64,000 bases of DNA from Sulfurovum sp. (GCA_027063305.1 JAMORY010000014.1:47840-111839); one strand, 5' to 3'. Positions 1,609 through 55,710 are shown, counted from the first letter of the stretch. Translations and numbers: made by a program. Notes: generated by a model from the sequence alone, not told the origin.

Positions 1609-3911
<2,303 letters not shown>

Positions 3912-3923
3912 GATTAGCCTTTC

Positions 3924-5438: not shown

Positions 5439-5466
5439 TGATACTCCTTTCTATTTTAATAGATCA

Positions 5467-6543: not shown

Positions 6544-6559
6544 ATCTTTATCCTTTCCC

Positions 6560-6982: not shown

Positions 6983-7044
6983 TCAAACTCCTCTAGTAAT
7001 TTCGCATTATATTACCATCTTATTGATGAGATAAGGGTTAATTT

Positions 7045-7914: not shown

Positions 7915-7918
7915 AATA

Positions 7919-8707: not shown

Positions 8708-9354
8708 CTTCTGCTAAATACCTTTTTCCCGTCAATAGATAGAGAGCCGTCTTCGCATAAAGATGCGTTCTCAAGGCTCATTTTTTCACTTTCAATATGG
8801 GTTTCATACCCTTTACTCTGTTCAAATTCTACCCGATACTCACTAAAAACCTGCTTCCAAGAAGGAAACTCGCACAGCACTTCCAGATACTTTTCCAATA
8901 GTGTTTTTGCACTGATATCCACTTCGATACACCCGTATGGTACAGGTGCCTCTTTCAAGTTAATACCCATACCGCATATTAGTGTATCGCAACACTGTTT
9001 CGTGATCGTCCCTCCAGCTTTCTTCCGACCTACATAAAGATCGTTCGGCCACTTCAACCACACCTCTTGATGATAGGAAGAGAGAAGTTTCTTCATGATA
9101 AAAGAGAAGTAGATCGAGGCTGATGCGATGGGAAGATCTTTAGGAAGCATCGCAATATCTACGGCAAAAGAGGCAAAGAAATTCCCCTTTGACCCTTCCC
9201 ATCGGTTCTCTCTACTACCGATACCGTCATATTGATCTTCCGCCATCACTGCGATCGGTGCCTTCAGTGTACCTTTCGATATCGCATCACTCAAATAGGT
9301 CTGAGTCGAAGGGAGCGAAGAGAAGTGCAGAACAGAGAAAACACAACTAGGCAT
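8704..9354 (-). CDS. birA: Biotin--protein ligase
   Basis: STQTYL; GIGSRENRW; WLKWPNDLY. Confidence 0.92.
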   Translation of the reverse strand: MPSCVFSVLHFSSLPSTQTYLSDAISKGTLKAPIAVMAEDQYDGIGSRENRWEGSKGNFFASFAVDIAMLPKDLPIASASIYFSFIMKKLLSSYHQEVWLKWPNDLYVGRKKAGGTITKQCCDTLICGMGINLKEAPVPYGCIEVDISAKTLLEKYLEVLCEFPSWKQVFSEYRVEFEQSKGYETHIESEKMSLENASLCEDGSLSIDGKKVFSRR

Positions 9355-10279: not shown

Positions 10280-10356
10280 TTGATCTCTTCTCTTTCTTGT
10301 AGGATTAATGTGTAACGATCACCATCGATTTTGCGCGAATCATACCAACGGTATGC

Positions 10357-11139
10357 TTAATTCTCTAATCTATACTCTTTCTCATCGGTAAAAAGCGTAC
10401 CTCCCAGATGCTTTTTTTCAAGGAGAAATGACCGAATATCACTTAGGTTAAAACCTGATGCAAGAAACATCGCTCTTTGATGTTTCATCAAGAAGTCTGC
10501 AGACTGCAACTTGGTTACGATACCTCCGGTCGCAAACTCATTATTGGGAGTATGCTCCGCCTCCAACTCCTCTTGGGAGATACTTGTAACCACTTTTCGC
10601 ACCACAGCGTCATCATATCGATTGGGATCTTTATCGTAAAGAGCATCGATATCCGAGAGTATCACAAGCATCTGCGCATCAAAGTAGTGTGTTACATGGG
10701 CAGAAAGCCTGTCATTATCCCCAAAAACCAACTCTTCGATACTGACCGTATCGTTCTCATTGATAATAGGCACCACACCATTGGCAAGCAGTGTATCGAT
10801 CGCGACCTTGGCATGTGCCGTTGCCTTCCGTGAGTCAAAAACCTCCGCACTTAAAAGTACTTGAGAACAGATGATATCACGCTTGGCAAATTTTTCTTGA
10901 TACATTTTCAAAAGAAGCGGTTGACCGATCGCAGCCAACGCTTGACGGTTCGCTACAGATGTACGATCAAGCGGAAGCTGAGTATAACCTGCCGCTACAG
11001 CACCGGAACTGACAAGTATCACTTCATATGCCGCCGACTTTAGATCGGAGACCAGATCAACCAAAGCACGCATTCTCTCTTTTGCGATCGTACCGTTTTC
11101 GGTCAATACATGAGACCCTACCTTGATGACCAGACGCAT
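10357..11139 (-). CDS. proB: Glutamate 5-kinase (no PUA domain)
   Basis: VIKVGS; VSSGAVAAG; PIINENDTV; FGDNDRLSA; TGGIVTKL. Confidence 0.95.
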
Positions 11140-12266
11140 TACGCCTCCTCGCTCTCTTCTTTCTCTTGGGCTTCTACATTCTTGACAAAATCACCCAATG
11201 CATAGCGTAACGCTTCCGTATTGATATGTGCTACAGAGGAGATTGGAAGTACGAAAAGCGGTTCAGTCTCCGGTAACTTCACGCCATGATCGGTCCTAAA
11301 TCCATAACAGACATACCCCATATCCGCTTTATACTGCTTCAACTTATCATTGGCATCAAGCCCGATATCGGCTAAGAACTGTGAGGTCAAAGCATTCACT
11401 TCATCTTGAGATAGAGAATCGATCTTGGTAATGGCAACGGCATGTTTGCGTTTTGCCAGAGTCTCGGAGTATCTCTTCAACTCTACCAATAACGTTTCGT
11501 ACTGGTACTTCATCTCACGGTAGTTGGCAGCATCGATCATTAAAAGCAGGGTCTTGGTACGCTCGATATGCTTTAAAAATTCCAGTCCCAGACCTCTACC
11601 GTCACTTGCCCCTTCGATGATCCCCGGTATATCCGCCATCATGAACGAATCGTAATCACCGATATGTACAACACCCAACTTCGGTGTCAATGTGGTAAAT
11701 TCATAGTTCGCCACTTGAGGGCGTGCATTGGAGAGTGTAGCGATAAGTGTTGATTTTCCTACGTTCGGATACCCTACCAACCCTACATCGGCAATAAGCT
11801 TCATCTCCAGTCTGACATGTTTGGTAATGCCCGGAAGTCCGGGCTGTGCATAGGTCGGTCTTTGGTTGGTCGCACTTTTAAAATGCATATTCCCCAAACC
11901 GCCTTTCCCGCCCTCAAGGAACTTGACGATCGTTCCCTCTTCAACAAGGTCAAGGAGTTCCTCTCCTGTTTCCATATCGATCACGGTTGTACCCGGAGGA
12001 ACGGTAATAGTAACATCCTTCCCTTTGCGACCGTATTTCTTACGCCCCTCTCCCGGACGTCCGTTCTCCGCTTTAATATGATTACGACCCCTTAGACCTG
12101 AAAGGGTATCGGTATTGTTATCGACTTTAAAAAAAACCGATCCACCACGCCCTCCATCACCACCGTCAGGGCCACCTTTAATAACAAATTTCTCCGTCCA
12201 AAAAGAGATGGCACCCGCCCCTCCCTTTCCTGAACTAATCGTTAGTTCTACACTATCTACAAACAT
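11139..12266 (-). CDS. obgE: GTPase ObgE/CgtA
   Basis: Gly-rich Obg fold; GYPNVGKST; DIPGIIEGA. Confidence 0.97.
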
Positions 12267-17351: not shown

Positions 17352-18590
17352 TCAATAGCTATTATTGTACGCACAATTTGCCGTTTTCAATAGTGCATCT
17401 TGTATTCCGGAAACATTTATCTTTCCACACCGTGTCTTCAATGTCTTAAAATAACTATTATAATGTCCACTAGTAATACGACCATGCTTCAATCCACCCA
17501 TATTTATCAAGAAATTATTCGGATCATCATGTTGAGAATACCAAATTAGACCATCATACGATCCATTGTATAGTACATGACAAGTAATATTTTTCTTCCA
17601 GTCTTCATACTCACATGAATCAACTGAAACCGTACCGTTCGATGATGATGACTGCCGATGCGTACTCAAATATTCGTCTACTTTTCGTTCTATCGAACTT
17701 CTGACGGTTTTGATTCCTTCTATAATCATTATTTTCATATGCCGAGAAGAGATCGTTTCTCTATAGCGGTGGGCTACCTTTTTCTGACAAATAAGGATAC
17801 CTCTTTTTAAACACTTTTGAGCATATACCTCTATGTTTACATCTCCATCCGGCCATCCATCTTTAAAATAACCTTCTATCGAAATATAATCCAAGTATTC
17901 ATCATCTTTAAAAGGAAGCAAGATGCTACCTTTTCCTTCAATATAGCGATTCTTCCCTTGCTCAGAGTACCAACGCATCTTTTTCCTGTCTATCATATTA
18001 TAAAGTGGTAAATCACCTTTTTGTGCATTAAGAGATTTTAAAAAAGATTCCAACTCTGTTTTAATTAATACCTCACCTATAATCTTTCTTGCATCAGAAT
18101 CGTTTAAATAATCATCCGTTACTTCAAAAATAAGATCTGTTATACCGTCACCTATAATAAAATTTTCTTTTTTTACTTTTACATAGAGATTAACCTCAGG
18201 TAAAAATGTATGATACAGATGACTTTTGTTCGTAGATTTCAACTTTTCACAATAAAGCTTAACATATGTGCTAATTTCACTCACCGTATTAAAACTTTTC
18301 ACAAATTTTTTTGACAATCCATAAAGTGTAAAAGGCTTCATACCTTCAGATAAGCGTTCTGGCTTTCGTTTATATAAATAATAGGCACTACCATTTTTAT
18401 CATAACAAATCCAATCAAGTGTTGGATACCCGTAATAACGATCAATAGGAATATAGGTTTGTACAGTACGCGGTGTAACCCGTTTCGTCTTAATATAGTT
18501 TAATCGCTCCTGTGGATATACCTCATATGACGGATCCAAAGAACATCCTCCAATAAAAAAAAGTACTACTAACATTAAAATAAGCCGCAT
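17352..18590 (-). CDS. AT-rich hypothetical lipoprotein
   Basis: 412-aa ORF; lipobox IGGC at residue 16; two sampled 60-nt lines ~28% GC versus ~58% for a sampled metY line. Confidence 0.7.
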   Translation of the reverse strand: MRLILMLVVLFFIGGCSLDPSYEVYPQERLNYIKTKRVTPRTVQTYIPIDRYYGYPTLDWICYDKNGSAYYLYKRKPERLSEGMKPFTLYGLSKKFVKSFNTVSEISTYVKLYCEKLKSTNKSHLYHTFLPEVNLYVKVKKENFIIGDGITDLIFEVTDDYLNDSDARKIIGEVLIKTELESFLKSLNAQKGDLPLYNMIDRKKMRWYSEQGKNRYIEGKGSILLPFKDDEYLDYISIEGYFKDGWPDGDVNIEVYAQKCLKRGILICQKKVAHRYRETISSRHMKIMIIEGIKTVRSSIERKVDEYLSTHRQSSSSNGTVSVDSCEYEDWKKNITCHVLYNGSYDGLIWYSQHDDPNNFLINMGGLKHGRITSGHYNSYFKTLKTRCGKINVSGIQDALLKTANCAYNNSY

Positions 18591-27242: not shown

Positions 27243-27318
27243 GACCCGTTAGCTCAGTTGGTAGAGCAACTCCCTTTTAAGGAGTGGGCCCTAGGTTCGA
27301 ATCCTAGACGGGTCACCA
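27243..27318 (+). tRNA. tRNA-Lys (TTT)
   Basis: GACCCGT/ACGGGTC acceptor; CTTTTAA loop; TTCGAAT; CCA. Confidence 0.95.
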
Positions 27319-27339
27319 CTATTTTTAGTATATAAATGT

Positions 27340-27416
27340 GCGGCGGTAGTTCAGTTGGTTAGAATACCTGCCTGTCACGCAGGGGGTCGCGAGTTCGAGT
27401 CTCGTCCGCCGCGCCA
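27340..27416 (+). tRNA. tRNA-Asp (GTC)
   Basis: GCGGCGG/CCGCCGC acceptor; CTGTCAC loop; CCA. Confidence 0.95.
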
Positions 27417-27436
27417 TTTATCTGCACTCTATTTGT

Positions 27437-27512
27437 GACCCGTTAGCTCAGTTGGTAGAGCAACTCCCTTTTAAGGAGTGGGCCCTAGGTTCGAATCCTA
27501 GACGGGTCACCA
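27437..27512 (+). tRNA. tRNA-Lys (TTT), copy 2
   Basis: Identical to 27243-27318. Confidence 0.95.
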
Positions 27513-27534
27513 CCAAATTTAGTTTCAAATATTC

Positions 27535-27610
27535 GGTCGCTTAGCTCAGTTGGTAGAGCGCTACCCTTACAAGGTAGATGTCACAAGTTCGAGTCTTGTA
27601 GCGACCACCA
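27535..27610 (+). tRNA. tRNA-Val (TAC)
   Basis: GGTCGCT/AGCGACC acceptor; CTTACAA loop; CCA. Confidence 0.95.
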
Positions 27611-27639
27611 TTGAAACTTATGACTGTTTGGATCTAGAT

Positions 27640-27715
27640 GACCCTTTCATCTAGTGGCCAAGGATGCTACGTTTTCATCGTAGTCACAGAGGTTCAAATC
27701 CTCTAGGGGTCGCCA
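27640..27715 (+). tRNA. tRNA-Glu (TTC)
   Basis: GACCCTT/AGGGGTC acceptor; TTTTCAT loop; CCA. Confidence 0.93.
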
Positions 27716-27739
27716 ACATAGCACTGTTATGTTTTCTAT

Positions 27740-27815
27740 GGTCGCTTAGCTCAGTTGGTAGAGCGCTACCCTTACAAGGTAGATGTCACAAGTTCGAGTC
27801 TTGTAGCGACCACCA
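27740..27815 (+). tRNA. tRNA-Val (TAC), copy 2
   Basis: Identical to 27535-27610. Confidence 0.95.
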
Positions 27816-27878
27816 TGAAATTAAGCTTCACAAAAGCTTTTTTCAGTAAAATCTTATCAACCTTTCTAAGGTTACGGT

Positions 27879-27955
27879 GCGGCGGTAGTTCAGTTGGTTA
27901 GAATACCTGCCTGTCACGCAGGGGGTCGCGAGTTCGAGTCTCGTCCGCCGCGCCA
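27879..27955 (+). tRNA. tRNA-Asp (GTC), copy 2
   Basis: Identical to 27340-27416. Confidence 0.95.
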
Positions 27956-44489: not shown

Positions 44490-46198
44490 TACTTCTCCTC
44501 CCCGTTATTTTCGATCTTCGGCGGCAGCATCATGTTAAAGAGCGCTCCGCCCGCCGGTACCATCGGTAGTACGTTCTCAAAACGGTTGACCGCAACGTTC
44601 ATGAAACAGACCTTGTCCTTTTCTATGGCATCTTTGAGTGCCGCATCGAACTCCTCTTTGGTCGTCACATCATACCCGATCCCGCCACACGCTTCTACCA
44701 GCATCTTCCAGTTTGGCTGGAATGTCAGATCGGTCTCGGAGTAGCGCTTCTCATAAAAAAAGGTCTGCCACTGGCGTACCATACCAAGGAAGTGGTTGTT
44801 CAAAATAACGTTGATGACCGGCGTTTTGTACTCAGCTGCCGTTACCAGCTCTTGGACGTTCATCAATATAGAACCGTCTCCGGTAATGTTGATAACGGTC
44901 TTTTCGGGACAAGCACGCTTCGCACCGATCGCGGCAGGAAGTCCGAACCCCATCGTTCCAAGACCACCGGAGTTGATCCACTGGCGAGGTCTGTCGAACG
45001 GATAGTGCTGTGCCGCCCACATTTGGTGTTGACCGACATCCGAAGTGATGATCGCCTGTTCACCGACTAATTCACCGATACGTTCGATCGCCCACTGCGG
45101 TTTAATGACCTCATCGCTGTCTTCATACGATTGCGGGTGAAGTTCATCATAGCGCTTCAAGATCTCTCTCCATGCCTGATAACGGTCGGGGTTGACACCT
45201 TCAAGGAGCGGGATCATCTTCTCAAGCACTTGTGTGATGTCGCCAACGATCGGATAATCGACATCGACAAGTTTGGAGATGTTCGCAGGATCGATATCAA
45301 CATGGATCACATCGGCATACTTGGCGAACTCACTCAATTTTCCCGTTACACGGTCATCAAAACGCGCACCAAGGGAGATGACAAGGTCGGTCTCGCTCAT
45401 CGCCATGTTCGAAGCATAGTTCCCGTGCATTCCAAGCATCCCAAGAAGCAATGGGTTCTTCGCACCCATGACACCCCTTGCCATCAATGTCTCAACTGCC
45501 GGGATCTGGGTTTTCTCAGCCAATTCTCTTACCAGTTTGTAGGCATTGGAGGCAACCACACCACCCCCAAGATAGAGAAGCGGTTTTTTCGCTTTCTTGA
45601 TCGCTTCGACCGCCTTTTCGATCTGACGGTTATTCCCTTTGTAGGTCGGTTTGTAGGTTGGGATATTCACACTCTCAGGGTACTTGAACTCACCGATCTC
45701 CACAGTAATATCTTTAGGGATATCGACCAGTACGGGACCTGGTCTTCCTGTTCTAGCAAGATAGAACGCCTCTTTAAGAATACGCGGAAGCTCTTCAAGC
45801 GAGCGTACGAGGAAGTTGTGCTTCGTACACGGTCTTGAGATACCTACCGCATCGATCTCCTGAAACCCGTCCGTTCCGATAAGTGAAAGCGGTACCTGCC
45901 CCGAGATGACCACCATGGGGATGGAGTCCATGTAAGCGGTCGCCAATCCTGTCACCGCATTGGTAAAGCCCGGTCCCGATGTGACCATCGCCACGCCTAC
46001 TTCACCTGTTGCTCTTGCATATCCGTCAGCCGCGTGTACGGCCGCTTGTTCATGACGGTTAAGAATATGTTCAAAACCGTTCTGCTTATAAATTTCATCG
46101 TAAACGTGCATGATCGCTCCGCCGGGGTAACCGAAAACGGTCTTCACACCCTCGGCGATAATCGCCTCACACACCATCTGTGCACCACTCATCTGCAT
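44489..46198 (-). CDS. ilvB: Acetolactate synthase large subunit
   Basis: FGYPGGA; RHEQAAVHAADGYAR; GDGS TPP motif; LGMVRQWQ. Confidence 0.96.
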   Translation of the reverse strand: MQMSGAQMVCEAIIAEGVKTVFGYPGGAIMHVYDEIYKQNGFEHILNRHEQAAVHAADGYARATGEVGVAMVTSGPGFTNAVTGLATAYMDSIPMVVISGQVPLSLIGTDGFQEIDAVGISRPCTKHNFLVRSLEELPRILKEAFYLARTGRPGPVLVDIPKDITVEIGEFKYPESVNIPTYKPTYKGNNRQIEKAVEAIKKAKKPLLYLGGGVVASNAYKLVRELAEKTQIPAVETLMARGVMGAKNPLLLGMLGMHGNYASNMAMSETDLVISLGARFDDRVTGKLSEFAKYADVIHVDIDPANISKLVDVDYPIVGDITQVLEKMIPLLEGVNPDRYQAWREILKRYDELHPQSYEDSDEVIKPQWAIERIGELVGEQAIITSDVGQHQMWAAQHYPFDRPRQWINSGGLGTMGFGLPAAIGAKRACPEKTVINITGDGSILMNVQELVTAAEYKTPVINVILNNHFLGMVRQWQTFFYEKRYSETDLTFQPNWKMLVEACGGIGYDVTTKEEFDAALKDAIEKDKVCFMNVAVNRFENVLPMVPAGGALFNMMLPPKIENNGEEK

Positions 46199-46278
46199 GA
46201 TCACACACTCCATTGTATTTTAATTTTAACCCCGATTATAGCAAAAAATTATTAGAGTGGGACGTTAACATCTTAAAT

Positions 46279-46295
46279 AGGAGTAATTTTCTCCT
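46279..46295 (-). terminator. Hairpin directly after caspase-gene stop
   Basis: AGGAG-AAAATTA-CTCCT on minus; short stem. Confidence 0.35.
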
Positions 46296-47051
46296 TTATT
46301 GTACCTCTTTGGGTACGATCACTGCCGGTATTTGTGCTCGCTTTGCCATGCGTCGGTTCAGACATATTTGAAGTGAGGATATATTAAGCTGTTTAGTTGA
46401 ACATACAGCCAGAACCGGTGCGAATATGCCACTTTGTGCCTCTGTAATGGAAGAAGCGATGTAGATCAAATGTCGGTAGGGATACCCCCTGTTCTCCGTT
46501 AGCAAGAATGGTGTTAAAGGCTCTTTCCCCTCCGCACCCCGCACGGTCGTCTCGGCAAAACAGGCATCGAATACCACCACGCCTTCTGTTATCTTCACAT
46601 CAATACGCTCAAGGATCGGTCGTAGATCACGTTTACCTATGATAACGCTCTTAGAGATATCCGCAGGTGAAAAGTCATAAGGCAAAAGCGCACCGGAATC
46701 TCGCATCCACTCCGTCAGCCCCGCCTCTTGGAAACGTGCACTGTAGAGTGGATCGTAAAGGCTACTTCCATGACCCGAAAAGAAAAAAAAGAAGCGATCA
46801 CCCTTTTTGATATGCGTAGCGATATGAGAGAGTTTCTGCAAAACAGCCTCTTTTGTTGCCAGCGCATTATGCAATATATCGATCTTTGTCGCACCCCACT
46901 TTCGGGCTATCTCCCGATAGTAACGCTGCTCCTGTTCCATTTTGGAAGGCCCCTGTATATGCGCATACTTCCCAACGGTCACGATCAAAGCATAGCTTTG
47001 CGATGCCAAAACTATTTTCCCTAGCACAAAAAGCCATACGAAAAGACGCAT
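46296..47051 (-). CDS. Caspase-family (peptidase C14) protease with signal-peptide-like N-terminus
   Basis: YALIVTVGKY; ATKEAVL; FFFFFSGHGS (catalytic His); VVVFDACF (catalytic Cys); N-terminus MRLFVWLFVLGKIVLA. Confidence 0.85.
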   Translation of the reverse strand: MRLFVWLFVLGKIVLASQSYALIVTVGKYAHIQGPSKMEQEQRYYREIARKWGATKIDILHNALATKEAVLQKLSHIATHIKKGDRFFFFFSGHGSSLYDPLYSARFQEAGLTEWMRDSGALLPYDFSPADISKSVIIGKRDLRPILERIDVKITEGVVVFDACFAETTVRGAEGKEPLTPFLLTENRGYPYRHLIYIASSITEAQSGIFAPVLAVCSTKQLNISSLQICLNRRMAKRAQIPAVIVPKEVQ

Positions 47052-47052
47052 T

Positions 47053-47763
47053 CTATCTCTCCTCCTTATACTTTAGCAGGTATATCGCAATGTCATAACG
47101 CAAAAGCTTTTTATACTCCTCGATCCCCTCTCTTACTTCACGTGCCTCTCGATGGGCCAACTGCATCAAACGGTAGTTCAGTACGATCTGCTGCTGCATA
47201 CGCAATTTGGTATCCTTGGTATGACGGATCGTGATCTGGGCTTTTTTGTAGTAGATACGTGCCTGTTCGAATGCACCTTGTGCTGCCAACCTCATCGCTT
47301 TGGCATAATAAGGCACACCATCCATCGATGTACGCTTCACGATGTTTTGAAGTGCCGTATCCATATCTATCTGTTCGGAGGCAGGCACATTTACCGGTGC
47401 TGACTTATAGCCCGAATCCATCCAAACCTGTGCAAAGGAGTATTTTCCAAGAGAGAGGTCACTCTCTTTACCAAGCGGTACTACGAACAAGAAAAGCAAA
47501 GATGCGGCCAATGCCAATGCCGCTCCTGCCAATGCCTTCAAGGAGACATTACGTAAATAAGGTCTTTTTGACTTTGTCTCAAGCGATACATAACGTTGCA
47601 TACAGGCCTCACACTCCAATAGATGAGAGAACACCTTCTCTTTCTCCTTTGGCAAAAGGCTCTGCTTACGAAGTGCCTCTAAAGCGGCAGGTTTTAAATG
47701 TTGCTCCTCTTCTATAGTGACAGGCTCCATCAATCGCTCGATATAGCGTAGATCTTCTTTCAT
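47053..47763 (-). CDS. Putative transmembrane anti-sigma factor (zf-HC2/ZAS)
   Basis: HLLECEAC = HxxxCxxC; [21 protein letters not shown]; TPR-like external helix pair; ATGA overlap with the sigma-like gene. Confidence 0.72.
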   Translation of the reverse strand: MKEDLRYIERLMEPVTIEEEQHLKPAALEALRKQSLLPKEKEKVFSHLLECEACMQRYVSLETKSKRPYLRNVSLKALAGAALALAASLLFLFVVPLGKESDLSLGKYSFAQVWMDSGYKSAPVNVPASEQIDMDTALQNIVKRTSMDGVPYYAKAMRLAAQGAFEQARIYYKKAQITIRHTKDTKLRMQQQIVLNYRLMQLAHREAREVREGIEEYKKLLRYDIAIYLLKYKEER

Positions 47764-48971
47764 GATATTCTCTTTAGTTTTTTCTTGGCATTCTCTATTT
47801 TTTTATCTATCTGCTTGGCTGTTCTACCGAATATCACACCGATCTCCTTTGCACTCAAGGGTTCGCTATAGACCAATTTCAGATAGATCTCTTTTTTTGC
47901 ATCATCCATATATTCACTATACGAATACGACTGTAGTTTCTCCCTCTCTTTGGAGAGCTTTTTTGAGATGGATGCTTTGATGCTCGGAACATCCAATGCA
48001 GACATTTGAGGCGTGTCATCTTTAAGGTCGTACCGTGTTTTTAGCTGAACATAGAACTTCTCCTCACTACTTAGGCATGAGAGTAACTTATCATCCCGGT
48101 AGTCAAGACGTGCAATGACCTCCAGAAACTCGGCATTTTCAAGCCTAAAGCCATATTTTAGCTTGTAGATCAGCTGCTGTTCATCATTAAGCGGTGTAAG
48201 CAAAGTGATATCTTCCGCATCTTGCTCCTCTACTGCTTCACAGACTTCAGGTTCATCCAATATCTCCTTGCTATAAGTACTGCTACGGGTAAAATCGATA
48301 AGCCTGTTCTTTAATGCACGGGAGATATAGACACTAAACTTCTCACACCCGATAAGCTCTTCGAAGATATAAGGTTCAAGCTGCTTAACTTTCGATCCAT
48401 CATAAGCAACACATGCTTTAACCAGCACTTCCAATACCAAAGGAACATCATAGAAACGATACCCAAGCGCATGGTGCAAGGTGTGTGCATGATGATACGG
48501 ATCGAAGAAAAAGAGTGCGTTCTCGACGATCGCAGCCGCTTTTTCAGGCACGGTAGCGGTTTGTGTATAGCGTCGTCGTATTTTATTGTAAAAGTGGATC
48601 GCACTCTCCTCTTTGTTCATACACACCTCATCTTGAAGCATTGCGCGTACTTGTGTAAAGAGTGCGGATTCCTGTGAAACATCAAACGCTTCTATCTGCT
48701 GAGGGAGTCGTGAGAGAAGGTAGTCCGTACAGGCATCTCGCTTACTGTAACAACTTCGGCATACCTGTATACTTTTTTGCTCGGCAAAAGTGTAGTAGAG
48801 CACCCAGAAGCGATTCTTCTCTACACGGTTATAGGCTTGTATGCATTGAACGAGTGACGCTTCGTCACTATTGTCCACACAGTGCACTTCACAGCGTTCT
48901 TGTGTCGTTTTGAACAGTGCTTTGCAGTGTATTCGACATAATTGCTGTAGTAAAGAACTTTTCTCTTTCAT
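47760..48971 (-). CDS. Atypical sigma-70/ECF-like factor with Cys/His-rich N-terminal extension
   Basis: Region-2-like FSVYISRALKNRLIDFTRS; region-4 HTH EIYLKLVYSEPLSAKEIGVIFGRTAKQIDKKIENAKKKLK; adjacent to a ZAS gene. Confidence 0.62.
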   Translation of the reverse strand: MKEKSSLLQQLCRIHCKALFKTTQERCEVHCVDNSDEASLVQCIQAYNRVEKNRFWVLYYTFAEQKSIQVCRSCYSKRDACTDYLLSRLPQQIEAFDVSQESALFTQVRAMLQDEVCMNKEESAIHFYNKIRRRYTQTATVPEKAAAIVENALFFFDPYHHAHTLHHALGYRFYDVPLVLEVLVKACVAYDGSKVKQLEPYIFEELIGCEKFSVYISRALKNRLIDFTRSSTYSKEILDEPEVCEAVEEQDAEDITLLTPLNDEQQLIYKLKYGFRLENAEFLEVIARLDYRDDKLLSCLSSEEKFYVQLKTRYDLKDDTPQMSALDVPSIKASISKKLSKEREKLQSYSYSEYMDDAKKEIYLKLVYSEPLSAKEIGVIFGRTAKQIDKKIENAKKKLKRIS

Positions 48972-48995
48972 TACTCCTCCCGTTATGAGGAGTAA
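48971..48995 (-). promoter_or_regulatory. RBS-occluding hairpin of sigma-like gene
   Basis: Minus: TTACTCCTC-ATAACGG-GAGGAGTAA; the 3' arm holds the SD and the A of ATG. Confidence 0.6.
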
Positions 48996-49022
48996 TTATA
49001 ATTGATTTATCGTTACACTTTC

Positions 49023-49581
49023 CTACTTCTTCTTCAAAAGTGTCACGAAACGCGGATCCATAATAATGTCGTTGATAAGTTTTCGTACCGCTATAGGAAG
49101 TGTTGTGCGCATCTTATAGCAGGCAGCATCGGCAGAGAAACTCGAACTGTACTCATAGCGCGAACGTACTCTGAAGCTTTTACCGTTAAAAGATCTTACC
49201 GTAATATCGAACTCCCAGTAGGCATCTCCTAACGTGGTACTGCTTTTAACACTGTTCAAGTTTGCAGAGATGATTGTTTTAGGGTCATGGCTGAACATAC
49301 CCGAGACAATAAGCTCTTTTCTAAACGCGTTCTTGATATAGTCTGCAAAACTCTCTCCGTTCGGTGTCTCCATCGGGGTACTCAGACGACAGGTCAAGGC
49401 ATTGCCGCTATTACTGGAGTCGGTAAAAGTACCGATTCCCACACTTTGACTATGTGCCAACAACCCCCCGTAGAACCTGCACGTTGTCCGAAGAGACCGA
49501 ATAACGTTGCATCTTCTGTGCACACCCACTCAAACCTACCATAACTGCCAATGCCGCAAAGGCTATTGTAAATCGTTTCAT
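49023..49581 (-). pseudogene. Lipoprotein frameshifted in a G6 tract (phase-variable, pseudogene or assembly error)
   Basis: ATG 49581 gives MKRFTIAFAALAVMVGLSGC (lipobox)...VLRGVVGT* (TAG 49450-52); deleting one G of the tract at 49464-49469 joins it to the 49023-49529 frame, giving 185 aa. Confidence 0.75.
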
Positions 49582-49671
49582 TCTTTGTTTCCTTTACTAT
49601 CGTAAATATGCAATACGCTTGTATTGCTTACCCTCTATACGAAGTAAAAAAAACATTCCCCCCCTATTTTT

Positions 49672-50553
49672 TCAATATTTCCAAGGATGTTCTCTTATTT
49701 TTATCGCTTTTTGACGATAATATGCCGCTTTTTTCTCATCTACTTCACCTGCCATCCCTAAAAGAGAGAACGCCTCCATCCATATACAAGATACCCAATC
49801 GTTCATCTTGCACCCTTGTTCTAAATAGTATCTGGCTTGATGATAGGCAATGGATGTATCGCGCCCCTGCAAGTAGAGTATTCCTACCTCGGCACAAGCA
49901 CCGGCATAGCCCTTTTTACATGCTTTTCCATAGTAGCGTGCTCTTACAACATTGTTTTGAGCAAGTCTCCCCAGATAGAAACACCCTCGTCCTTCTCCTA
50001 AACGGCATGCATGCTCTAGGTAATGATATGCTTTAGCAAGGTCTCTTTCTTTTCCTGTCATACCGATAAAATAATGCTTCCCTACAATAAGACAATCTTT
50101 GGCACTTCCTTTTTTACATGCATGCTCCTGACGACCTGTTTGCGATACGATACGATGATGCATCTCATCCTCAAACTCCCGCTGTGTTCGGATATAGTCT
50201 CCTCTAGGAGACTCTCCTGTAAGCTCTTTTCCCATACTCTCAACCGTGCTTTTTTGACCATTTGCCTTACGCTTTAAACGTACCTCTTCCTCTTTTGAAG
50301 GATCAATGTCGGAATGTTCAAGCTCCAAAGGCAAACCTACTTTTTTTGCCATAGTATTCCATACATGCACCTGCTCTTCAAGCGGCCTGTCTGCAATATC
50401 TTCAAAGTTGAACACCTCTCCTGATGGAAGCTTCATCTCGAACTTGCCGTTTTGCTCATAGATCAACTTCGCTATACCGAAGTTCACCCCGCCAAGCTCT
50501 CCTCGACCCCATGCCAACATACAGCAAAATGCCAGTAGCACCACCTGATTCAC
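49672..50553 (-). CDS. Exported Sel1-like (Hcp-type Cys-paired) repeat protein
   Basis: Signal-like N-terminus; CKKG...C..VG..Y..G...ERDLAKAYHYLEHACRLG..RGC repeats; GTGA overlap with the CHAT gene. Confidence 0.8.
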   Translation of the reverse strand: MNQVVLLAFCCMLAWGRGELGGVNFGIAKLIYEQNGKFEMKLPSGEVFNFEDIADRPLEEQVHVWNTMAKKVGLPLELEHSDIDPSKEEEVRLKRKANGQKSTVESMGKELTGESPRGDYIRTQREFEDEMHHRIVSQTGRQEHACKKGSAKDCLIVGKHYFIGMTGKERDLAKAYHYLEHACRLGEGRGCFYLGRLAQNNVVRARYYGKACKKGYAGACAEVGILYLQGRDTSIAYHQARYYLEQGCKMNDWVSCIWMEAFSLLGMAGEVDEKKAAYYRQKAIKIREHPWKY

Positions 50554-53402
50554 TGTACCACTCCTTTCTGATATAAAATAAAACTTGCCCAGTAGTAGGG
50601 ATGGGATACCCCCTGTTCTATGAGTTTTCGTTTCATTTTAGCCAACGATAGCGCATATCCCGTACCGTCATGTACATTCGTATAGAACAGTGCCATTGCT
50701 TTTGCAGCGATCGTATCATTAACCTGCCATAAACTTACAACGACCCGTCTTGCACCTGCTTGAAAAAAAGCTTCATAGAGTCCGAGTACTCCTTCTCCTC
50801 GCTCTATTTTCCCCAAGGCGCTCTCACAACAAGAGAGTGTTACAAGCTCCGTACCGTAGAGGTTCATCCCCGCCAAAGACACACCCGATACCTTTTTCCC
50901 CTTTGCAAGTACGATCCCCACATCTCTTAGACGATAACGGTCTTTTGCAGGTGTGAAGTAACCATGTGCACCAATATGCAGAAAACGGGGATGCCGTTGT
51001 TTCAAAAGTGCCTCTGCCGTTGCTTTATCTTGACTGAAACGCTTTAGGTCACCAAACAGTTCACCAATCGCATCCGCCTCTTTTCGTGTTCCTTGAAGAG
51101 AACGATAAGAGAGATCTGCATCTGAATAGTCAGGGTCATCGAAAACCACATAGGTTTGTGACTTAGATGACGTTTTAGAGAGAGTGGCTAACATATCTTT
51201 AGCCGAAGCAAGATAGTAGAGAGTATGGTGTTCGACCAGATAAGACTTTCCGTCATACAGCGCTTCAAAAGGTAAAAATGCCAATATGCCATCAGGAGAG
51301 ATAAGCAAAGAGTCTGTTTGAGGCACACCTTCAGGGAAAAGCTTACGGTAGAGAGCACCATAGCTTCGCTTCGCTTCGAAAATATCGGCAAACCGTTCTC
51401 CTTTGGCTATCTTCTTTTGCATCTGACGTATTGACCCTATATCTTCTTCGACCGCTTCTGTGGTATGTGCATCATAATATTTCACCTCCACCCCACGCTT
51501 ATGACTCAAGATAAAACGAAGGTAATTCTTTTCTACATAAGCGAAGTCTATATAGGCACTCTCTTTAGGAAGATGTGCCAAAAAGCCTTCGATATCTTTG
51601 GGGATCTTTGGAGAGGCGAGATGATAACGCTTCATCAATGCCGCTACTGCTATACTCTGTTGGTGCATCTGCTCCTGAAGATACTTCAGTCGTTCACTAC
51701 TTCGTTCTTGCTGTTGCCAATAACGGTCGTACTGTTTACGAAGATCCCTAAAGTGATCGATTACCTTCCTCTCTTTTATAGAAGCGCGTTGATAAAGTAA
51801 AGACAACGTATCGAAAGAGCCGTTGACCATATGTTTATAACGACTCCAGATAAGGAAAAGTCTTTCGAATACCGCTTCTTCCTCTACCTTATCATCACTG
51901 TTGATATAGGCAAATGCCGTGATGCTCAAAAGTGAGAACAACCCGTCATGTGCCGTTTTAATACCAAGCTTTTGTATGGTATCACTGATCCCAAAGTACG
52001 CTTTCTCATAGGCAAAGAAGTGGGCCATAGACTCTAAAGCCGAATCGTACGCCTGCTTAACTTCCTGCTTCTTTAAATAGAGTGAGGCGAGATTTCCGTA
52101 TGTCCAGATATAAAGAGGTTCCAACATATCTGTTTTAGTCTTTTGCAACACATCCAAGCCCTTCTTCGCATAACATAGCGCTTTGTCATACTCACCCATC
52201 TCACCCAATATATTCGAAAGCTTCAAATAACTATAGACAAGGTCAGGATGCTCTTTCGAAAGAAGGGTTTCTTTAATCTTTAGTGAATCATCCATATATT
52301 TTCTTGCTTGATCAAAAAGTCCAAGATCTGCATAGATATCAGAGATCGTTGCATCGATATATGCATATTCCAAATGCTTGGAAGAGATGCATGAACGTGC
52401 TTTTTTGGCATATTCGAGTGCCTTTTCATATGCACCAAGTTCTACATAATAGTCTGCATAGCTCTGAAAAACAAGACCCTCAAGTACCTTGGGCGGTTGT
52501 ACTAAATGCCCATAGGCTTCATATGCCAACGAGAGATAGGATCTTGCACGGGGAAGATCGTGTAGTGCCAACTGCAACCTAAAGAGTGCCAAGGATGTTT
52601 TGACCATGCTTTTTCCCTGTCTCTTCTTATACCACTGCATCGCTTTTTGCAAATGCACATTAGCAGACTCAAGACTATTGGACTTCATATAGGTAACCCC
52701 GATAATATAGTGTAATGAGGCGATGAAGGCTTCTGGCATGTTTATCTGCTTTGCCTCTTGCAAGACTTCATTTTGCACATCAAGCGCCTCCTCATAATCC
52801 CCCTCTTTCATCTTTACCGTACCCATATTCATTTTACTCTTGAGTGCCTCTTGTCTCATACCATATGCATAGAAATAGTCGTATGCTTTTCTGGATGCTT
52901 CCCATGACCTTTTTACGTGCATATTTTCCAGTTCTGCGGCACCTAAGATATTGTAAAGTATCGCTGAAGTCCGGTTCTTCTCCCCATACGACTGAGCGAT
53001 CAAAGAGAGCGCTTTTGACGCGAACCGTGCCGATCTTTCATACTCCCCTCTCTCCAATAGCTGTTGGCTTAAAGAAGCATATATCGCTATAAGTGCTTGG
53101 TGGTTCTGTTGAAGAATATAACGCGCATCCACTTCCGATAAGCGATCAAGCCACACCAACGCATTCTCTCTATCTCCTACTTTTAAGGAGAGTTCGGAAG
53201 CTTTCAGGTAGTAACTCACTTTTTTCGTAACGTTCTTCTCTTCCTCGATCATCTTCTCCAACAGCGTTAATGCTCGGGTATGATCCTCTCTCCCAATCGC
53301 CGTACGAAATGCCAAGATCTCCGCAGATCCCGCACCATTCAATACTTGTGTAAGTATGCATAAAGACAGAACGATCAAACTGCGTAAATATTGAACAACC
53401 AT
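50550..53402 (-). CDS. TPR-repeat + CHAT domain protease with signal-peptide-like N-terminus
   Basis: TPRs (e.g. EHPDLVYSYLKLSNILGEMGEYDKAL); LLISPDGILAFLPFEAL; FLHIGAHG (His); LVTLSCCESALG (Cys); AGARRVVVSLWQV.D; HPYYWASF. Confidence 0.92.
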   Translation of the reverse strand: MVVQYLRSLIVLSLCILTQVLNGAGSAEILAFRTAIGREDHTRALTLLEKMIEEEKNVTKKVSYYLKASELSLKVGDRENALVWLDRLSEVDARYILQQNHQALIAIYASLSQQLLERGEYERSARFASKALSLIAQSYGEKNRTSAILYNILGAAELENMHVKRSWEASRKAYDYFYAYGMRQEALKSKMNMGTVKMKEGDYEEALDVQNEVLQEAKQINMPEAFIASLHYIIGVTYMKSNSLESANVHLQKAMQWYKKRQGKSMVKTSLALFRLQLALHDLPRARSYLSLAYEAYGHLVQPPKVLEGLVFQSYADYYVELGAYEKALEYAKKARSCISSKHLEYAYIDATISDIYADLGLFDQARKYMDDSLKIKETLLSKEHPDLVYSYLKLSNILGEMGEYDKALCYAKKGLDVLQKTKTDMLEPLYIWTYGNLASLYLKKQEVKQAYDSALESMAHFFAYEKAYFGISDTIQKLGIKTAHDGLFSLLSITAFAYINSDDKVEEEAVFERLFLIWSRYKHMVNGSFDTLSLLYQRASIKERKVIDHFRDLRKQYDRYWQQQERSSERLKYLQEQMHQQSIAVAALMKRYHLASPKIPKDIEGFLAHLPKESAYIDFAYVEKNYLRFILSHKRGVEVKYYDAHTTEAVEEDIGSIRQMQKKIAKGERFADIFEAKRSYGALYRKLFPEGVPQTDSLLISPDGILAFLPFEALYDGKSYLVEHHTLYYLASAKDMLATLSKTSSKSQTYVVFDDPDYSDADLSYRSLQGTRKEADAIGELFGDLKRFSQDKATAEALLKQRHPRFLHIGAHGYFTPAKDRYRLRDVGIVLAKGKKVSGVSLAGMNLYGTELVTLSCCESALGKIERGEGVLGLYEAFFQAGARRVVVSLWQVNDTIAAKAMALFYTNVHDGTGYALSLAKMKRKLIEQGVSHPYYWASFILYQKGVVQ

Positions 53403-53420
53403 TCACCATCTCCTCTAATA

Positions 53421-53433
53421 TGATATAATTATA
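53421..53433. promoter_or_regulatory. Overlapping divergent -10 boxes
   Basis: Plus TGaTATAAT 53421-29; minus TATAAT 53433-28. Confidence 0.4.
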
Positions 53434-53510
53434 CTCATTTCGATGAAAAAAAGACCAATTTATTGATATAAATCATCTCATATATCCCATTTACAAACTA
53501 TACTTTGCCT

Positions 53511-55034
53511 ATGGATTTTACAACAGCAATAGAGATCGCTGATCGGATCTGGTGGGTCGGTATGTACCTAAAGAACGATCCTTTCCAGTGCCACCCTTAC
53601 CTTATTCAGAACGGCAGGAGCTCCGTACTCATCGATCCAGGCTCCATGCTGGAGTTCGATGCCGTGATCAGTAAGATTCGCAGTGTGATCGACTTATCCG
53701 ATATCAAATATATCATCCTTCACCATCAAGACCCTGACCTTGCTGCATCCGTTCCCTATATAGAGCAAGTGATCGCAAGGGATGACCTTCAGATCGTGAC
53801 ACATTCACGTATGGTGCCGCTGATCAAACACTACCTGATACGTTCTGCATATTATAAAATAGACAAACATGACTACAAGCTAGAAGATGGTAACTTGGCA
53901 CTACAGTTCCTTACCACCCCCTATTGTCACTCACCCGGAGCTTTTGTAAGCTATGAGCCAGATACAAAGACCCTCTTCTCAGGTGATATATTCGGAGGGA
54001 TAGAGGAGTCATGGGAGTTCTATGCAAAAGATGACTATTTTGAAAAGGCCAAGCAGTTCCATGCCGAATATATGCCAAGCCGAGACATCTTCAACTATGC
54101 GCTCCACAAGATCGGATCTCTCGATATCGATCTTATCGCACCACAACACGGATCGATCATTCAAAAAGCACAGATACCCGATCTTATCGAACAGATGAAG
54201 CAACTGGAATGCGGACTCTATATCGAAGAGTCCTACCGTCACGATCTACTATATACCATCGAAGCATTGCGGCAGAAGGATCAGGCACTAGAGAGATCAC
54301 TTCGTTCTCTTCAGGAGAAAGAGGAGTTCCTTTTCCAAAAAGCGAAAATGGCCGATATGGGAGAGATGATAGGAAATATCGCTCACCAGTGGCGACAACC
54401 TTTAGCGATCAATACAACTATCCTCTCTATCTTAAAAGAGAAATCCCGGATGAACATCCTATCTCAAGAAGAGATGCTGCAAAAGTTCGAAGATATGGAG
54501 AACAATATACATTATATGTCAAAGACCATTGATGATTTCATGCGTTTCTATCATCCCGATAAAAGAAAGACCGTTTTTAATATCTCCGATGTCATAGAGC
54601 ATGCCATTACCATCATGGATCCGATCATGAAAAAAGCGAAGATACAGATGTATTTCGAACACTGTAGCGATGCGTATGTCAAAGGCTACATGAACGAATA
54701 TACACAGGTTGTCGTATCGATCCTGACCAATGCGAAAGATGTTTTAATTCAACGCAAGATAGAAGATGCTATGATCGATATAGCATTACGTAAGATCGGG
54801 AACAGAGTGGAACTTACGATCAGTGATAATGCAGGTGGCATAGAGGAGCGTCATCTTAAACGTATTTTCGATCCTTATTTCACGACCAAGCACCAATCCA
54901 TGGGTACAGGACTTGGACTCTACATTTCAAAAATGATCATTGAAAAGAATATGGGCGGGACCCTTCATGTAAAGAATACCTCTGAGGGTGCTCAGTTCAA
55001 TATAGTATTGGAGTATATCAATGTTGACAAGTAA
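53511..55034 (+). CDS. ODP-type metallo-beta-lactamase-fold (di-iron) sensor fused to histidine kinase
   Basis: HHQDPDLAAS; CHSPG; FSGDIFG; IAPQHG; EMIGNIAHQWRQPL (HisKA); DNAGGI, FTTK, GTGLGL (HATPase). TTG 53505 is an alternative start. Confidence 0.85.
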   Translation: MDFTTAIEIADRIWWVGMYLKNDPFQCHPYLIQNGRSSVLIDPGSMLEFDAVISKIRSVIDLSDIKYIILHHQDPDLAASVPYIEQVIARDDLQIVTHSRMVPLIKHYLIRSAYYKIDKHDYKLEDGNLALQFLTTPYCHSPGAFVSYEPDTKTLFSGDIFGGIEESWEFYAKDDYFEKAKQFHAEYMPSRDIFNYALHKIGSLDIDLIAPQHGSIIQKAQIPDLIEQMKQLECGLYIEESYRHDLLYTIEALRQKDQALERSLRSLQEKEEFLFQKAKMADMGEMIGNIAHQWRQPLAINTTILSILKEKSRMNILSQEEMLQKFEDMENNIHYMSKTIDDFMRFYHPDKRKTVFNISDVIEHAITIMDPIMKKAKIQMYFEHCSDAYVKGYMNEYTQVVVSILTNAKDVLIQRKIEDAMIDIALRKIGNRVELTISDNAGGIEERHLKRIFDPYFTTKHQSMGTGLGLYISKMIIEKNMGGTLHVKNTSEGAQFNIVLEYINVDK

Positions 55035-55710
55035 AATTGAAGATATCACCGTTCTTATCGCCGAAGATGAGGAGAAGCTTCTTGAACCGATGGTGGAGTA
55101 CCTCCAACTCTTCTTTAAACATGTCTATGGTGCGGTGGATGGAGAAAGTGCACTGGAACTCTACAAAACACACCGTCCCCAGATCATGATCGTCGATATC
55201 TTAATGCCGAAACTCGACGGCTTGGGACTGATCCGAAAGATCAGAGAGACAGATAACACGACTCGAATGATCATAACGACCGCATACTCCGACAGAGAGA
55301 AACTTCTTCAAGCCGTTGAACTGAGACTTGAAAAGTATTTGATCAAACCCATTCAAAGCAACGAGCTCAAAAAACTTCTCTTTGAGGTAGTGGAGGATAT
55401 ACGGAGCAAACAGACCATCATTCCTCTAAAGAGCGGATATAACTGGGACAAAAAACATCAAAAGCTACTTTATAAACAAGAGGAGGTAGGATTGAACTAC
55501 AAAGAGAGAAAGGTACTGGCACTACTGATACAAAGGTCCGATACTGCTGTATCTGCGATCGATATCTACAACTGCATCTATGCTGAAGAGCCAGAAAGAG
55601 ACTACTCCTCCTATGCCGTCACTTCTCTGATAAAACGTCTAAGACAGAAGCTTCCCAAAGGGATGATCAAAAGCGTTTATGGGAACGGATATATTTTTAC
55701 ACGAAATTAG
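55021..55710 (+). CDS. OmpR-family response regulator
   Basis: LIAEDE; VDILMPKLDG; YLIKP; winged helix IKRLRQKL...YGNGY. Confidence 0.92.
   Translation: MLTSKIEDITVLIAEDEEKLLEPMVEYLQLFFKHVYGAVDGESALELYKTHRPQIMIVDILMPKLDGLGLIRKIRETDNTTRMIITTAYSDREKLLQAVELRLEKYLIKPIQSNELKKLLFEVVEDIRSKQTIIPLKSGYNWDKKHQKLLYKQEEVGLNYKERKVLALLIQRSDTAVSAIDIYNCIYAEEPERDYSSYAVTSLIKRLRQKLPKGMIKSVYGNGYIFTRN

Follow-up and report, generated by a model that had tools for sequence, protein, structure and literature searches.

A candidate extracytoplasmic proteolytic switch combining exported CHAT and caspase proteases with a sigma-like/anti-sigma pair in Sulfurovum

The 64,000 nucleotides of Sulfurovum sp. DNA examined here (GCA_027063305.1 JAMORY010000014.1:47840-111839; hereafter the window, with positions counted from its first letter) contain a locus of six co-oriented minus-strand frames, whose limits in our listing of open reading frames (ORFs) are exactly 46296-53402. 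A sequence-only reading of this DNA had proposed that the frames encode a TPR-CHAT protease, a Sel1 protein, a lipoprotein, a sigma-like factor, a transmembrane (TM) anti-sigma factor of the zinc-type anti-sigma (ZAS) kind and a C14 caspase, and that together they form one operon for an envelope proteolytic signalling or defence cascade. The parts list was borne out. The uniform six-gene operon was not: the conserved unit consists of the sigma-like, ZAS and caspase genes (referred to below as the core), and the CHAT, Sel1 and lipoprotein genes are frequent but replaceable. In the direction of transcription, the features are as follows.

50550-53402, minus strand: TPR-CHAT protease, predicted exported; 950 aa, with a signal peptide, TPR repeats at about 30-620 and the CHAT domain at 682-944
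49672-50553, minus strand: Sel1-repeat protein, predicted exported; 293 aa, GTG start
49023-49581, minus strand: lipoprotein gene lipoB, disrupted; signal peptide and lipobox LSGC intact, +1 frameshift
48970-49000, minus strand: TATAAT box (48995-49000) and 10-bp hairpin (48970-48996)
47760-48971, minus strand: sigma-like protein; 403 aa, remote sigma homology
47053-47763, minus strand: ZAS-type single-pass membrane anti-sigma candidate; 236 aa
46296-47051, minus strand: C14 caspase (orthocaspase-like), predicted exported; 251 aa, Pfam Peptidase_C14

The genes had been described as tightly coupled, and at three of the five junctions they are. The CHAT and Sel1 genes overlap by 4 nt (GTGA, 50550-50553), the sigma-like and anti-sigma genes also overlap by 4 nt (ATGA, 47760-47763), and a 1-nt gap at 47052 separates the anti-sigma gene from that of the caspase. 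The description fails at the other two, where 90 nt lie between the Sel1 and lipoprotein genes and 51 nt between the lipoprotein and sigma-like genes, the latter gap holding the TATAAT box.

The conservation of the core is of particular interest. The sigma-like family is rare, with 21 clusters among 5.8 billion proteins, none of which has a Pfam domain, and it occurs in 3 of 185,579 species-representative genomes. All three are metagenome-assembled genomes of Campylobacterota (Sulfurimonas, Sulfurovum and Campylobacteraceae), in agreement with the lineage to which the locus had been assigned. Related loci, numbered L001 onwards, came from a scan of a genome collection (3) and of metagenomes (6), most of the contexts being obtained by exact-protein look-ups. 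The order sigma-like gene, ZAS-TM gene, caspase gene of about 250 aa was found in all of at least 14 distinct loci, with L014 exceptional in carrying Sel1 genes and a TerB/DnaJ-domain gene between the ZAS-TM and caspase genes; the adjacency of the sigma-like and ZAS genes is kept in every locus. Because the order recurs in every related locus at sigma-like identities of 23 to 90 %, the arrangement is far beyond chance, and it holds in at least four chromosomal contexts. This invariant order marks the core as a tight functional unit, and the CHAT, Sel1 and lipoprotein genes as its exchangeable outer layer.

Co-occurrence of the genes across genomes, which the earlier proposal needed, was thus found for the core but only in part for its partners, which vary. 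Eight of the roughly 12 loci with flanks long enough to judge have TPR-CHAT along with the core, in three arrangements. It lies upstream at the ppx...ilvB site in the window, L001, L003, L004, L007 and L008; upstream in another context, with Sel1 moved downstream, in L022; and immediately downstream of the caspase, as a lipoprotein, in L023. Between CHAT and the core, L004, L007 and L008 carry PKD, AAA_14/DUF4143, PemK/PhdYeFM toxin-antitoxin, CSD and OmpA genes. Other proteins stand beside the core elsewhere: a 915-aa WD40 lipoprotein, an LPP20 protein and an extra lipoprotein caspase in L005, and a caspase-OmpA protein, a VWA-OmpA protein and another caspase in L024. Sel1 proteins and small lipoproteins recur across the loci. 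Two further copies deserve mention. In L007 the CHAT gene (3113-6087) is split into 848 + 139 aa just past the catalytic His and the caspase gene (10719-11461) into 73 + 197 aa, the result of either a decaying copy or an assembly error. The core of L006 is followed (3240-11599) by genes for one more exported caspase, of 455 aa, for a membrane protein of 781 aa, for a DUF4407 protein and for a helicase exceeding 1475 aa that has DUF4011/AAA_11/AAA_12/DUF559 domains, and this neighbourhood resembles a defence island.

The caspase of the core exceeds the Pfam cut-off for Peptidase_C14 (PF00656; 24.4 bits against 21.4), a precomputed PF00656 match is present on nearly all members of its family, and the generic caspase model of PADLOC also recognises it (E 3.9e-10). 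Searched against the Protein Data Bank (PDB), the family profile matches 3bij (GSU0716) and the Trypanosoma metacaspase MCA2. H94 (in SGHG), D162 and C164 (in DAC) and the cysteine pair C217/C230 are invariant in seven orthologues, and the mature protein begins at the first beta strand, YALIV. The D-x-C pocket matches the Arg/Lys-specific metacaspase type known from the MCA2 structure, suggesting cleavage after Lys or Arg.

The second protease is unambiguous as to family. Its CHAT domain matches PF12770 over residues 682-944 with 207.4 bits (cut-off 24; E 4.1e-61), and the protein also matches TPR_12 (E 1.3e-25). The dyad consists of the His in IGAHG and the Cys in LSCC, where the second Cys is the conserved one; these residues align with HG and LS(S/A)C in L001, L003, L004, L008 and L023. 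The claim that both catalytic dyads are intact therefore holds for CHAT (IGAHG/LSCC) and caspase (H94/C164) alike, in the window and in the orthologues. A SAVED domain was not found in the CHAT protein by Pfam, the N-terminal part being TPR. In a sequence search of the PDB only the TPR part was matched, by kinesin-light-chain TPRs, and since no CHAT structure was returned the search gave no direct sequence link to DdvA, separase or Csx29.

The Sel1 protein that follows reaches 30.5 bits with PF08238, in two stretches, against a cut-off of 30.7. Its orthologues are found in L001 and L003, and Sel1 proteins occur also in L008, L014 and L022, those of L008 and L014 scoring far above the Pfam cut-off (up to E 4e-114 among those tested). 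Read from the translation, the window protein contains four C-x7-C pairs, a signature of the Helicobacter cysteine-rich (Hcp) Sel1-like repeat proteins.

The 236-aa ZAS protein has the layout expected of a membrane anti-sigma factor. A cytoplasmic N-terminus carries H22...H47-x3-C51-x2-C54, a TM segment spans residues 75-96 approximately, and a predicted helical periplasmic domain of about 140 aa follows with one TPR-like motif, so that the bulk of the protein lies past the TM helix. In seven aligned sequences H47, C51 and C54 never vary and the hydrophobic segment is maintained; the upstream His (H22; consensus HPSD), 25 residues before the motif, is present in six of the seven. The ZAS motif is found as well in L017, L018, L020, L022, L023 and L024. 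The protein had been called a zf-HC2 anti-sigma factor. The invariant H-x3-C-x2-C motif and the conserved TM segment uphold the anti-sigma part of that call, but the Pfam label does not hold at its cut-off: PF13490 gives 11.5 bits (E 0.34) against 22.2 in the window protein, and a precomputed match exists for 4 of 35 family members. Weak matches to ChrR (E 0.69) and to the N-terminal domain of DdvA (E 0.77) fall on the expected region. About 25 residues beyond the TM segment, a conserved [YWF]-[KR] (K120 in the window) stands within an otherwise variable juxtamembrane stretch. The most divergent loci carry, besides the membrane ZAS protein, an extra ORF of 58-62 aa with the ZAS motif and no TM segment (HPxxxxLxxFID...HLxYCxEC; L018:364-546, L020:330-518, L021:166-342), which sits just upstream of the sigma-like gene and may encode a second, soluble anti-sigma factor.

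The identity of the 403-aa protein is the most demanding question at this locus. It begins with a helical domain, continues with a sigma-2-like region that ends near residue 230 and an acidic linker, disordered, at 235-253, and closes with a sigma-4-like part that contains an insertion. Compared with a sigma factor of the extracytoplasmic function (ECF) type, its sigma-2-like part is preceded by a Cys-rich extension of about 115 residues, and its sigma-4 is interrupted by about 50 more. Five cysteines of the extension (C12, C16, C27, C71 and C81) are invariant and could form a metal or Fe-S site; for these N-terminal 115 residues no relatives were detected except P0036, a protein of 230 aa. 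Curated sigma models give scores below their cut-offs throughout. Sigma70_r4 reaches 13.5 bits (E 0.05) against 24.1 and Sigma70_r4_2 reaches 11.6 against 25.7, with similar sub-threshold matches in 7 and 5 of 22 family members, respectively, while no match to Sigma70_r2 (E up to 1) was obtained for the window protein or for any of these 22. TIGR02937 matches the window protein with E 4.5e-4 (19.9 bits, cut-off 42.9) over profile positions 50-163, and 20 of the 22 family members below the cut-off, with a best E of 1.5e-6.

Evidence for sigma ancestry comes from more distant relatives. An exhaustive search of 1.84 billion representatives with the family profile returned only 23 proteins, and after the family itself these were small proteins of 168-192 aa (E 6.5e-8 to 4.6e-4), the recognised small sigmas among them including matches at 6.5e-8 and 1.5e-5. 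Three of the small proteins exceed the Sigma70_r4 cut-off, and one of the three, P0034, also scores 23.5 bits with Sigma70_r2, against a cut-off of 24. When the sigma-like family was aligned by hhalign with P0034, a small ECF-type sigma, the match (97.9 %, E 4.2e-13) covered a region 2.3/2.4-like helix (EKFxxYIxxxIxSRFIDFTRS), a 4.1-like helix and the 4.2 helix-turn-helix. The P0034 gene is followed by one for a 129-aa ZAS-TM protein; with a ZAS-TM partner of its own, P0034 gives the sigma-like family canonical-looking small cousins. AlphaFold2 models are all-helical, with pLDDT 80.9 at full length and 76.4 for residues 118-403. A Foldseek search with the 118-403 model lists mostly sigma factors among its top 50 (SigA, SigW, CnrH, RpoE, SigL and sigma-32), at non-significant scores; the whole-chain model found nothing in the PDB below E 1.5, and the family profile matched no PDB sequence at E up to 10. 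The proposal of a sigma-like factor therefore fails at every curated cut-off but gains from the remote homology to P0034, and we regard the 403-aa protein as probably a divergent, enlarged member of the sigma-70 superfamily. For the tools used, it is too divergent for placement in any ECF group.

Where these proteins would act is suggested by their N-termini. CHAT, Sel1 protein and caspase each begin with an n-h-c signal peptide that is conserved across orthologues in position, not in sequence, and often ends at an AxA-like site (LFA/KD, VEA/SR, with the slash at the cut). Lipoboxes are found on the WD40 protein, on the CHAT orthologue of L023 and on several extra caspases. The sigma-like protein has no such signal. 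The invariant Cys pair of the caspase and the C-x7-C pairs of the Sel1 protein fit an oxidising compartment. Judged by the conserved signal peptides and the L023 lipobox, TPR-CHAT would be periplasmic, and with signal peptides on CHAT, Sel1 protein and caspase the proteolysis would be periplasmic too, the proteases facing the periplasmic domain of the ZAS protein and not the sigma-like protein. Of the suggestion of an envelope signalling or defence cascade, the envelope location is thus backed by the signal peptides, but defence is no better supported than envelope signalling.

The start of the core is marked by a further conserved element. In 12 of 14 loci the sigma-like start codon is preceded, at a distance of 25-45 nt, by a TATAAT box, which suggests that the core has its own housekeeping-type promoter; the CHAT gene of the window likewise has its own TGnTATAAT. 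In the window clade the box is followed by a hairpin. In the window its stem (-13.8 kcal/mol, z -6.0) takes up the Shine-Dalgarno sequence GGAGGAG together with the AU of the start codon of the sigma-like gene, and L001, L008 and L022 show compensatory changes. A transcript begun at the TATAAT box would lack the 5' arm of the hairpin, and hence the hairpin may act only on transcripts reading through from upstream. Scans of 46100-53600 were uninformative on operon structure, both for the sigma-70 promoter consensus (18 sites against a background of 14.1 +/- 3.4) and for terminators (5 against 5.0).

Taken together, these data lead us to read the locus as an extracytoplasmic proteolytic switch built on a sigma/anti-sigma pair, to which we assign a probability of about one half. 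At rest, the zinc-binding N-terminal domain of the ZAS protein would hold the cytoplasmic sigma-like protein at the membrane. The repeat-rich, exported TPR-CHAT, together with the Sel1 protein and the lipoprotein, would detect a protein cue in the envelope or outside the cell, and in other lineages the WD40 lipoprotein or the caspase-OmpA proteins would take the sensor position. CHAT would then activate the caspase, as SAVED-CHAT does PCaspase, and/or cut the ZAS ectodomain itself. The periplasmic domain of the ZAS protein would be the substrate, and possibly also the tether, of the adjacent exported caspase, which would make the site-1 cut, with K120 in the [YWF]-[KR] motif as the candidate site. 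An RseP-type intramembrane protease and cytoplasmic proteases could subsequently free the sigma factor. Gene content, conservation and order, the catalytic residues, the export signals, the ZAS motif and TM segment, and the remote sigma homology are what we observe; every binding and cleavage step of this scheme is inferred. In its most specific form, in which a periplasmic two-tier caspase cascade begins with TPR-CHAT sensing an envelope protein cue (e.g. contact with a phage or predator) and activating the orthocaspase as site-1 protease of the ZAS protein, so freeing a new class of large Cys-rich sigma factor, the scheme is tentative and in our judgement more doubtful than the switch as such.

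Several observations weigh against the proposed switch. The sigma-like protein stays under every curated sigma threshold and is twice the size of an ECF sigma factor, and the Foldseek search with residues 118-403 had a best E of 0.43, low template-modelling scores and no significant match. The TATAAT box before the sigma-like gene in most loci disfavours simple autoregulation, and no recognisable target promoter motif or regulon was found. In L005 and L024 the core occurs without CHAT, which is accordingly not essential for it. With lipoB broken in the window and the CHAT and caspase genes split in L007, parts of the system may be dispensable or decaying. Finally, the signal peptides were called by eye and from hydrophobicity.

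A rather unlikely alternative, yet the one that survives best, is that the proteases are outputs rather than triggers. The ZAS protein would itself be the sensor, through its periplasmic domain or through zinc/thiol chemistry, and the freed sigma factor would raise the levels of caspase and CHAT, which would act on envelope or foreign proteins in remodelling, killing or abortive infection. Such an arrangement would explain why the caspase shares a transcription unit with the sigma-like and ZAS genes (1-nt gap) and why extra exported caspases, one of them fused to an OmpA peptidoglycan-binding domain, lie beside the core in L005, L006 and L024. It is also in keeping with the broad substrate range and abortive phenotype of PCaspase (bioRxiv 10.1101/2023.06.23.546230) and with the ability of ZAS domains to respond to oxidants (PMC11506125). 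Control by the freed sigma factor is harder to reconcile with a housekeeping-type TATAAT, and not an ECF-type promoter, before the core in most loci, or with the TGnTATAAT that the window CHAT gene has for itself, and one small caspase strictly paired with one ZAS protein looks more like a dedicated partner than a general effector.

It is unlikely that the locus merely juxtaposes two independent modules, CHAT-Sel1-lipoprotein and sigma-like/ZAS/caspase, in a variable spot between ppx and ilvB. The unrelated genes that separate CHAT from the core in L004, L007 and L008, the cores that lack CHAT (L005, L024), the separate promoter-like boxes and the 90- and 51-nt gaps of the window would all be expected if this were so. 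Yet CHAT is also linked to the core in different genomic surroundings and with a different gene order (L022, L023), for which inherited synteny is no explanation.

We consider it quite unlikely that the 403-aa protein is a non-sigma helix-turn-helix regulator or scaffold with a borrowed sigma-4-like domain, and the ZAS-like protein its membrane tether. This would account for the failure of all Pfam and NCBIfam sigma models at cut-off, for the missing Sigma70_r2 match, for the Cys-rich extension of about 115 residues and the sigma-4 insertion of about 50, and for the empty PDB profile search (E up to 10). However, in the hhalign comparison P0034 aligns with the region 2.3/2.4-like helix as well as with the helix-turn-helix, P0034 itself is above the Sigma70_r4 cut-off and at 23.5 of 24 bits for Sigma70_r2, TIGR02937 spans positions 50-163, and sigma factors typically come with a ZAS partner. 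It is very improbable that the locus is a cytoplasmic cascade of the Craspase or PCaspase type whose CRISPR sensor was lost: the parts and gene order do resemble the Haliangium ochraceum cluster (CHAT, sigma, inhibitor, kinase, caspase), but CHAT and caspase carry conserved cleavable signal peptides or lipoboxes, TPR and CHAT come without a SAVED domain by Pfam and without a CRISPR array, and most of the ZAS protein lies beyond the TM helix.

The lipoprotein gene of the window is broken. From ATG 49581 the lipoB frame reads MKRFTIAFAALAVMVGLSGC..., which gives a lipobox-bearing signal peptide, before a stop is reached at codon 44 (TAG, 49450-49452); by three-frame translation the remainder lies in another frame. 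Alignment with the intact 185-aa orthologue at L003:8008-8565, on a metagenomic contig that is 90 % related, traces the break to one surplus G in a G6 run (49464-49469). The G6 was reproduced, at word depth 33, in an independent assembly of the source sample, a hydrothermal vent metagenome that holds 99 % of the locus's sampled words; the related populations X3 and X6 are one base shorter at the run. No Pfam or NCBIfam model matches lipoB, and of the hallmarks of a bacterial lipoprotein it keeps the lipobox LSGC but lacks an uninterrupted frame. The lipoprotein of the sequence-only reading therefore exists as a gene with signal peptide and lipobox, but its frame is interrupted by the +1 G in this genome. 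Since the G6 run is short and appears in a single form in the sample assembly, we think a pseudogene with a fixed frameshift more likely than a length-variable homopolymer subject to phase variation; the single form is that of contigs, which minor variants could escape. L003 (7499-7996), L011, L001 and L022 carry another small lipoprotein gene, lipoA (165-171 aa), between Sel1 and lipoB; the window lacks it (site 49556-49602). A 556-bp contig of lower depth (16 vs 44) bridges the lipoA site in run X3, which suggests a presence/absence polymorphism within one population.

The surroundings of the locus are those of a housekeeping region. All ten large flanking ORFs that were tested encode core metabolism, and the G+C content of the locus (0.43-0.45) is below that of the adjacent ilvB (0.51) and ilvA-like (0.49) regions. 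A scan for CRISPR-like arrays in the window was empty and no cas gene was present among the ORFs tested, in agreement with the statement that the window has neither. PADLOC assigned no defence system and reported only its generic caspase model and a TPR model; the sole Cas model listed, Cas12b on the 236-aa ZAS protein, was not significant (E 0.0014, 14.8 bits). Divergent from CHAT, on the plus strand, lie genes for a histidine kinase and an OmpR-type response regulator (53505-55710), the kinase having an N-terminus that is ODP/metallo-beta-lactamase-like as judged by the 71 %-identical L003 orthologue. We rejected a role for this pair in the system: the window and L003 alone have it, and because L001, L004, L007 and L008 lack it (CHAT following directly after ppx), it probably stands outside. 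Elsewhere in the window are a cluster of seven tRNA genes (Lys, Asp, Lys, Val, Glu, Val, Asp; 27243-27955, plus strand) containing a 194-bp unit repeated 1.8 times, and, among housekeeping genes, a 412-aa ORF (17352-18590, minus strand) with no Pfam match at E up to 1e-5.

A conflict role of the locus can be argued both ways. A very patchy distribution, exchangeable partners, decay in some copies and the lower G+C content speak for such a role, as do mobile-type neighbours (toxin-antitoxin modules, the DUF4011 helicase in L006) and precedents in the literature. Against it are the core-metabolism flanks, the lack of any known defence gene linked to the locus in the window and the absence of a PADLOC system.

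The comparison with Craspase and SAVED-CHAT, from which the locus had first been interpreted, rests on background statements that agree with the papers. Both of those cascades are cytoplasmic, however, both proteases here are predicted to be exported, and the closest precedent, DdvA of Myxococcus xanthus (PMC11506125), had gone unmentioned. In DdvA a periplasmic TPR-CHAT is carried on a ZAS-TM anti-sigma factor that undergoes RseP-dependent proteolysis, the TPR-CHAT being proposed to start this regulated intramembrane proteolysis; the ddvS operon also encodes a clan-CD (C25-type) peptidase, and proteins of the DdvA type are reported for Myxococcota and for a single species of Comamonas (PMC11506125). 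DdvA and the window system share a cytoplasmic zinc-type anti-sigma domain, one TM segment, a TPR-CHAT with His-Cys dyad (periplasmic in DdvA and predicted to be so here) and a partner sigma factor, and for both a protease is proposed to initiate intramembrane proteolysis. They differ in that ZAS, TM and TPR-CHAT are one chain in DdvA, whereas the TPR-CHAT of the window is separate and has its own signal peptide, leaving the anti-sigma candidate with a periplasmic domain of only about 140 aa. In addition, a separate C14 caspase is an invariant partner in the window system, its sigma-like protein of 403 aa has a Cys-rich N-terminal extension and falls below ECF thresholds, no CBASS (cyclic-oligonucleotide-based antiphage signalling system) or CRISPR regulon lies near the locus, and the lineage is Campylobacterota. 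The closest known system is thus DdvA-DdvS, and the window looks like a split, two-protease version of it.

Other systems share individual parts. In the type III-B/CBASS locus of H. ochraceum, PCaspase is switched on by SAVED-CHAT and cuts a sigma factor (bioRxiv 10.1101/2023.06.23.546230). One cluster there holds CHAT, C14 caspase and sigma in a similar order, and the idea that CHAT activates the caspase is taken from it. Its cascade is cytoplasmic and cA3-triggered via SAVED, whereas the window has TPR as the sensor part and proteases predicted to be exported; its caspase cleaves the sigma factor itself, and it has an inhibitor and a kinase and no ZAS-TM anti-sigma factor. If the window proteases are exported as predicted, the sigma factor cannot be their direct substrate, unlike in H. 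ochraceum. The type III-E Craspase (Cas7-11, Csx29, Csx30/Csx31, CASP-sigma; PMC10028731) similarly links a TPR-CHAT to a sigma factor and a cleaved sigma-binding protein, but it is RNA-guided, cytoplasmic and CRISPR-linked, none of which applies to the window system. ECF54 (PMC8999054) offers a comparative-genomic association of CHAT with an ECF-type sigma factor, proteolytic control having been proposed. Its neighbours are CHAT, a subtilase or a carboxypeptidase, and it was described without an anti-sigma factor (PMC8999054), in contrast to the invariant ZAS-TM partner seen here. N-terminal extensions of ECF sigma factors are known, for example in BldN (PMC7826278).

The proposed switch also follows the plan of canonical regulated intramembrane proteolysis. 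In RseA/DegS/RseP and RsiW/PrsW/RasP, as would be the case here, a single-pass anti-sigma factor receives an outer site-1 cut and then an intramembrane cut. At site 1 the window system would use a cysteine protease of the caspase family in place of a serine or metalloprotease, with a second protease possibly acting upstream of it. The architectures that define the known systems, namely the DdvA fusion, Cas7-11 in Craspase and SAVED in SAVED-CHAT, are not those of the window, and hence we see its system as a separate variant that plausibly works alike.

In the literature we came upon no report of an exported C14 caspase that always pairs with a ZAS-TM anti-sigma factor and a Cys-rich sigma-like protein of 400 aa, nor of this set in Campylobacterota, nor a paper on ECF function together with Peptidase_C14 or on a Sulfurimonas metacaspase. 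The best-studied Campylobacterota, Campylobacter and Helicobacter, are not known to have ECF sigma factors. The locus defines two families for which there is no curated profile, the sigma-like protein of about 400 aa with its five cysteines and its ZAS-TM partner.

Sigma factors released by proteases have been met repeatedly in the immunity and stress signalling of bacteria (Craspase, CalpL/T/S, SAVED-CHAT/PCaspase, DdvA). The authors of the DdvA study point out that a caspase-like site-1 cut of the anti-sigma factor cannot yet be tested, since the protease forms a single chain with its substrate and the signal is not known (PMC11506125). In the system described here TPR-CHAT, caspase and anti-sigma ectodomain are separate proteins of small or medium size, which makes the site-1 hypothesis directly testable. 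If our reading is correct, exported caspase-family proteases would have a place in bacterial envelope signalling, and in the more doubtful form of a two-tier cascade it would give the Campylobacterota of hydrothermal vents an extracytoplasmic, caspase-driven early-warning pathway.

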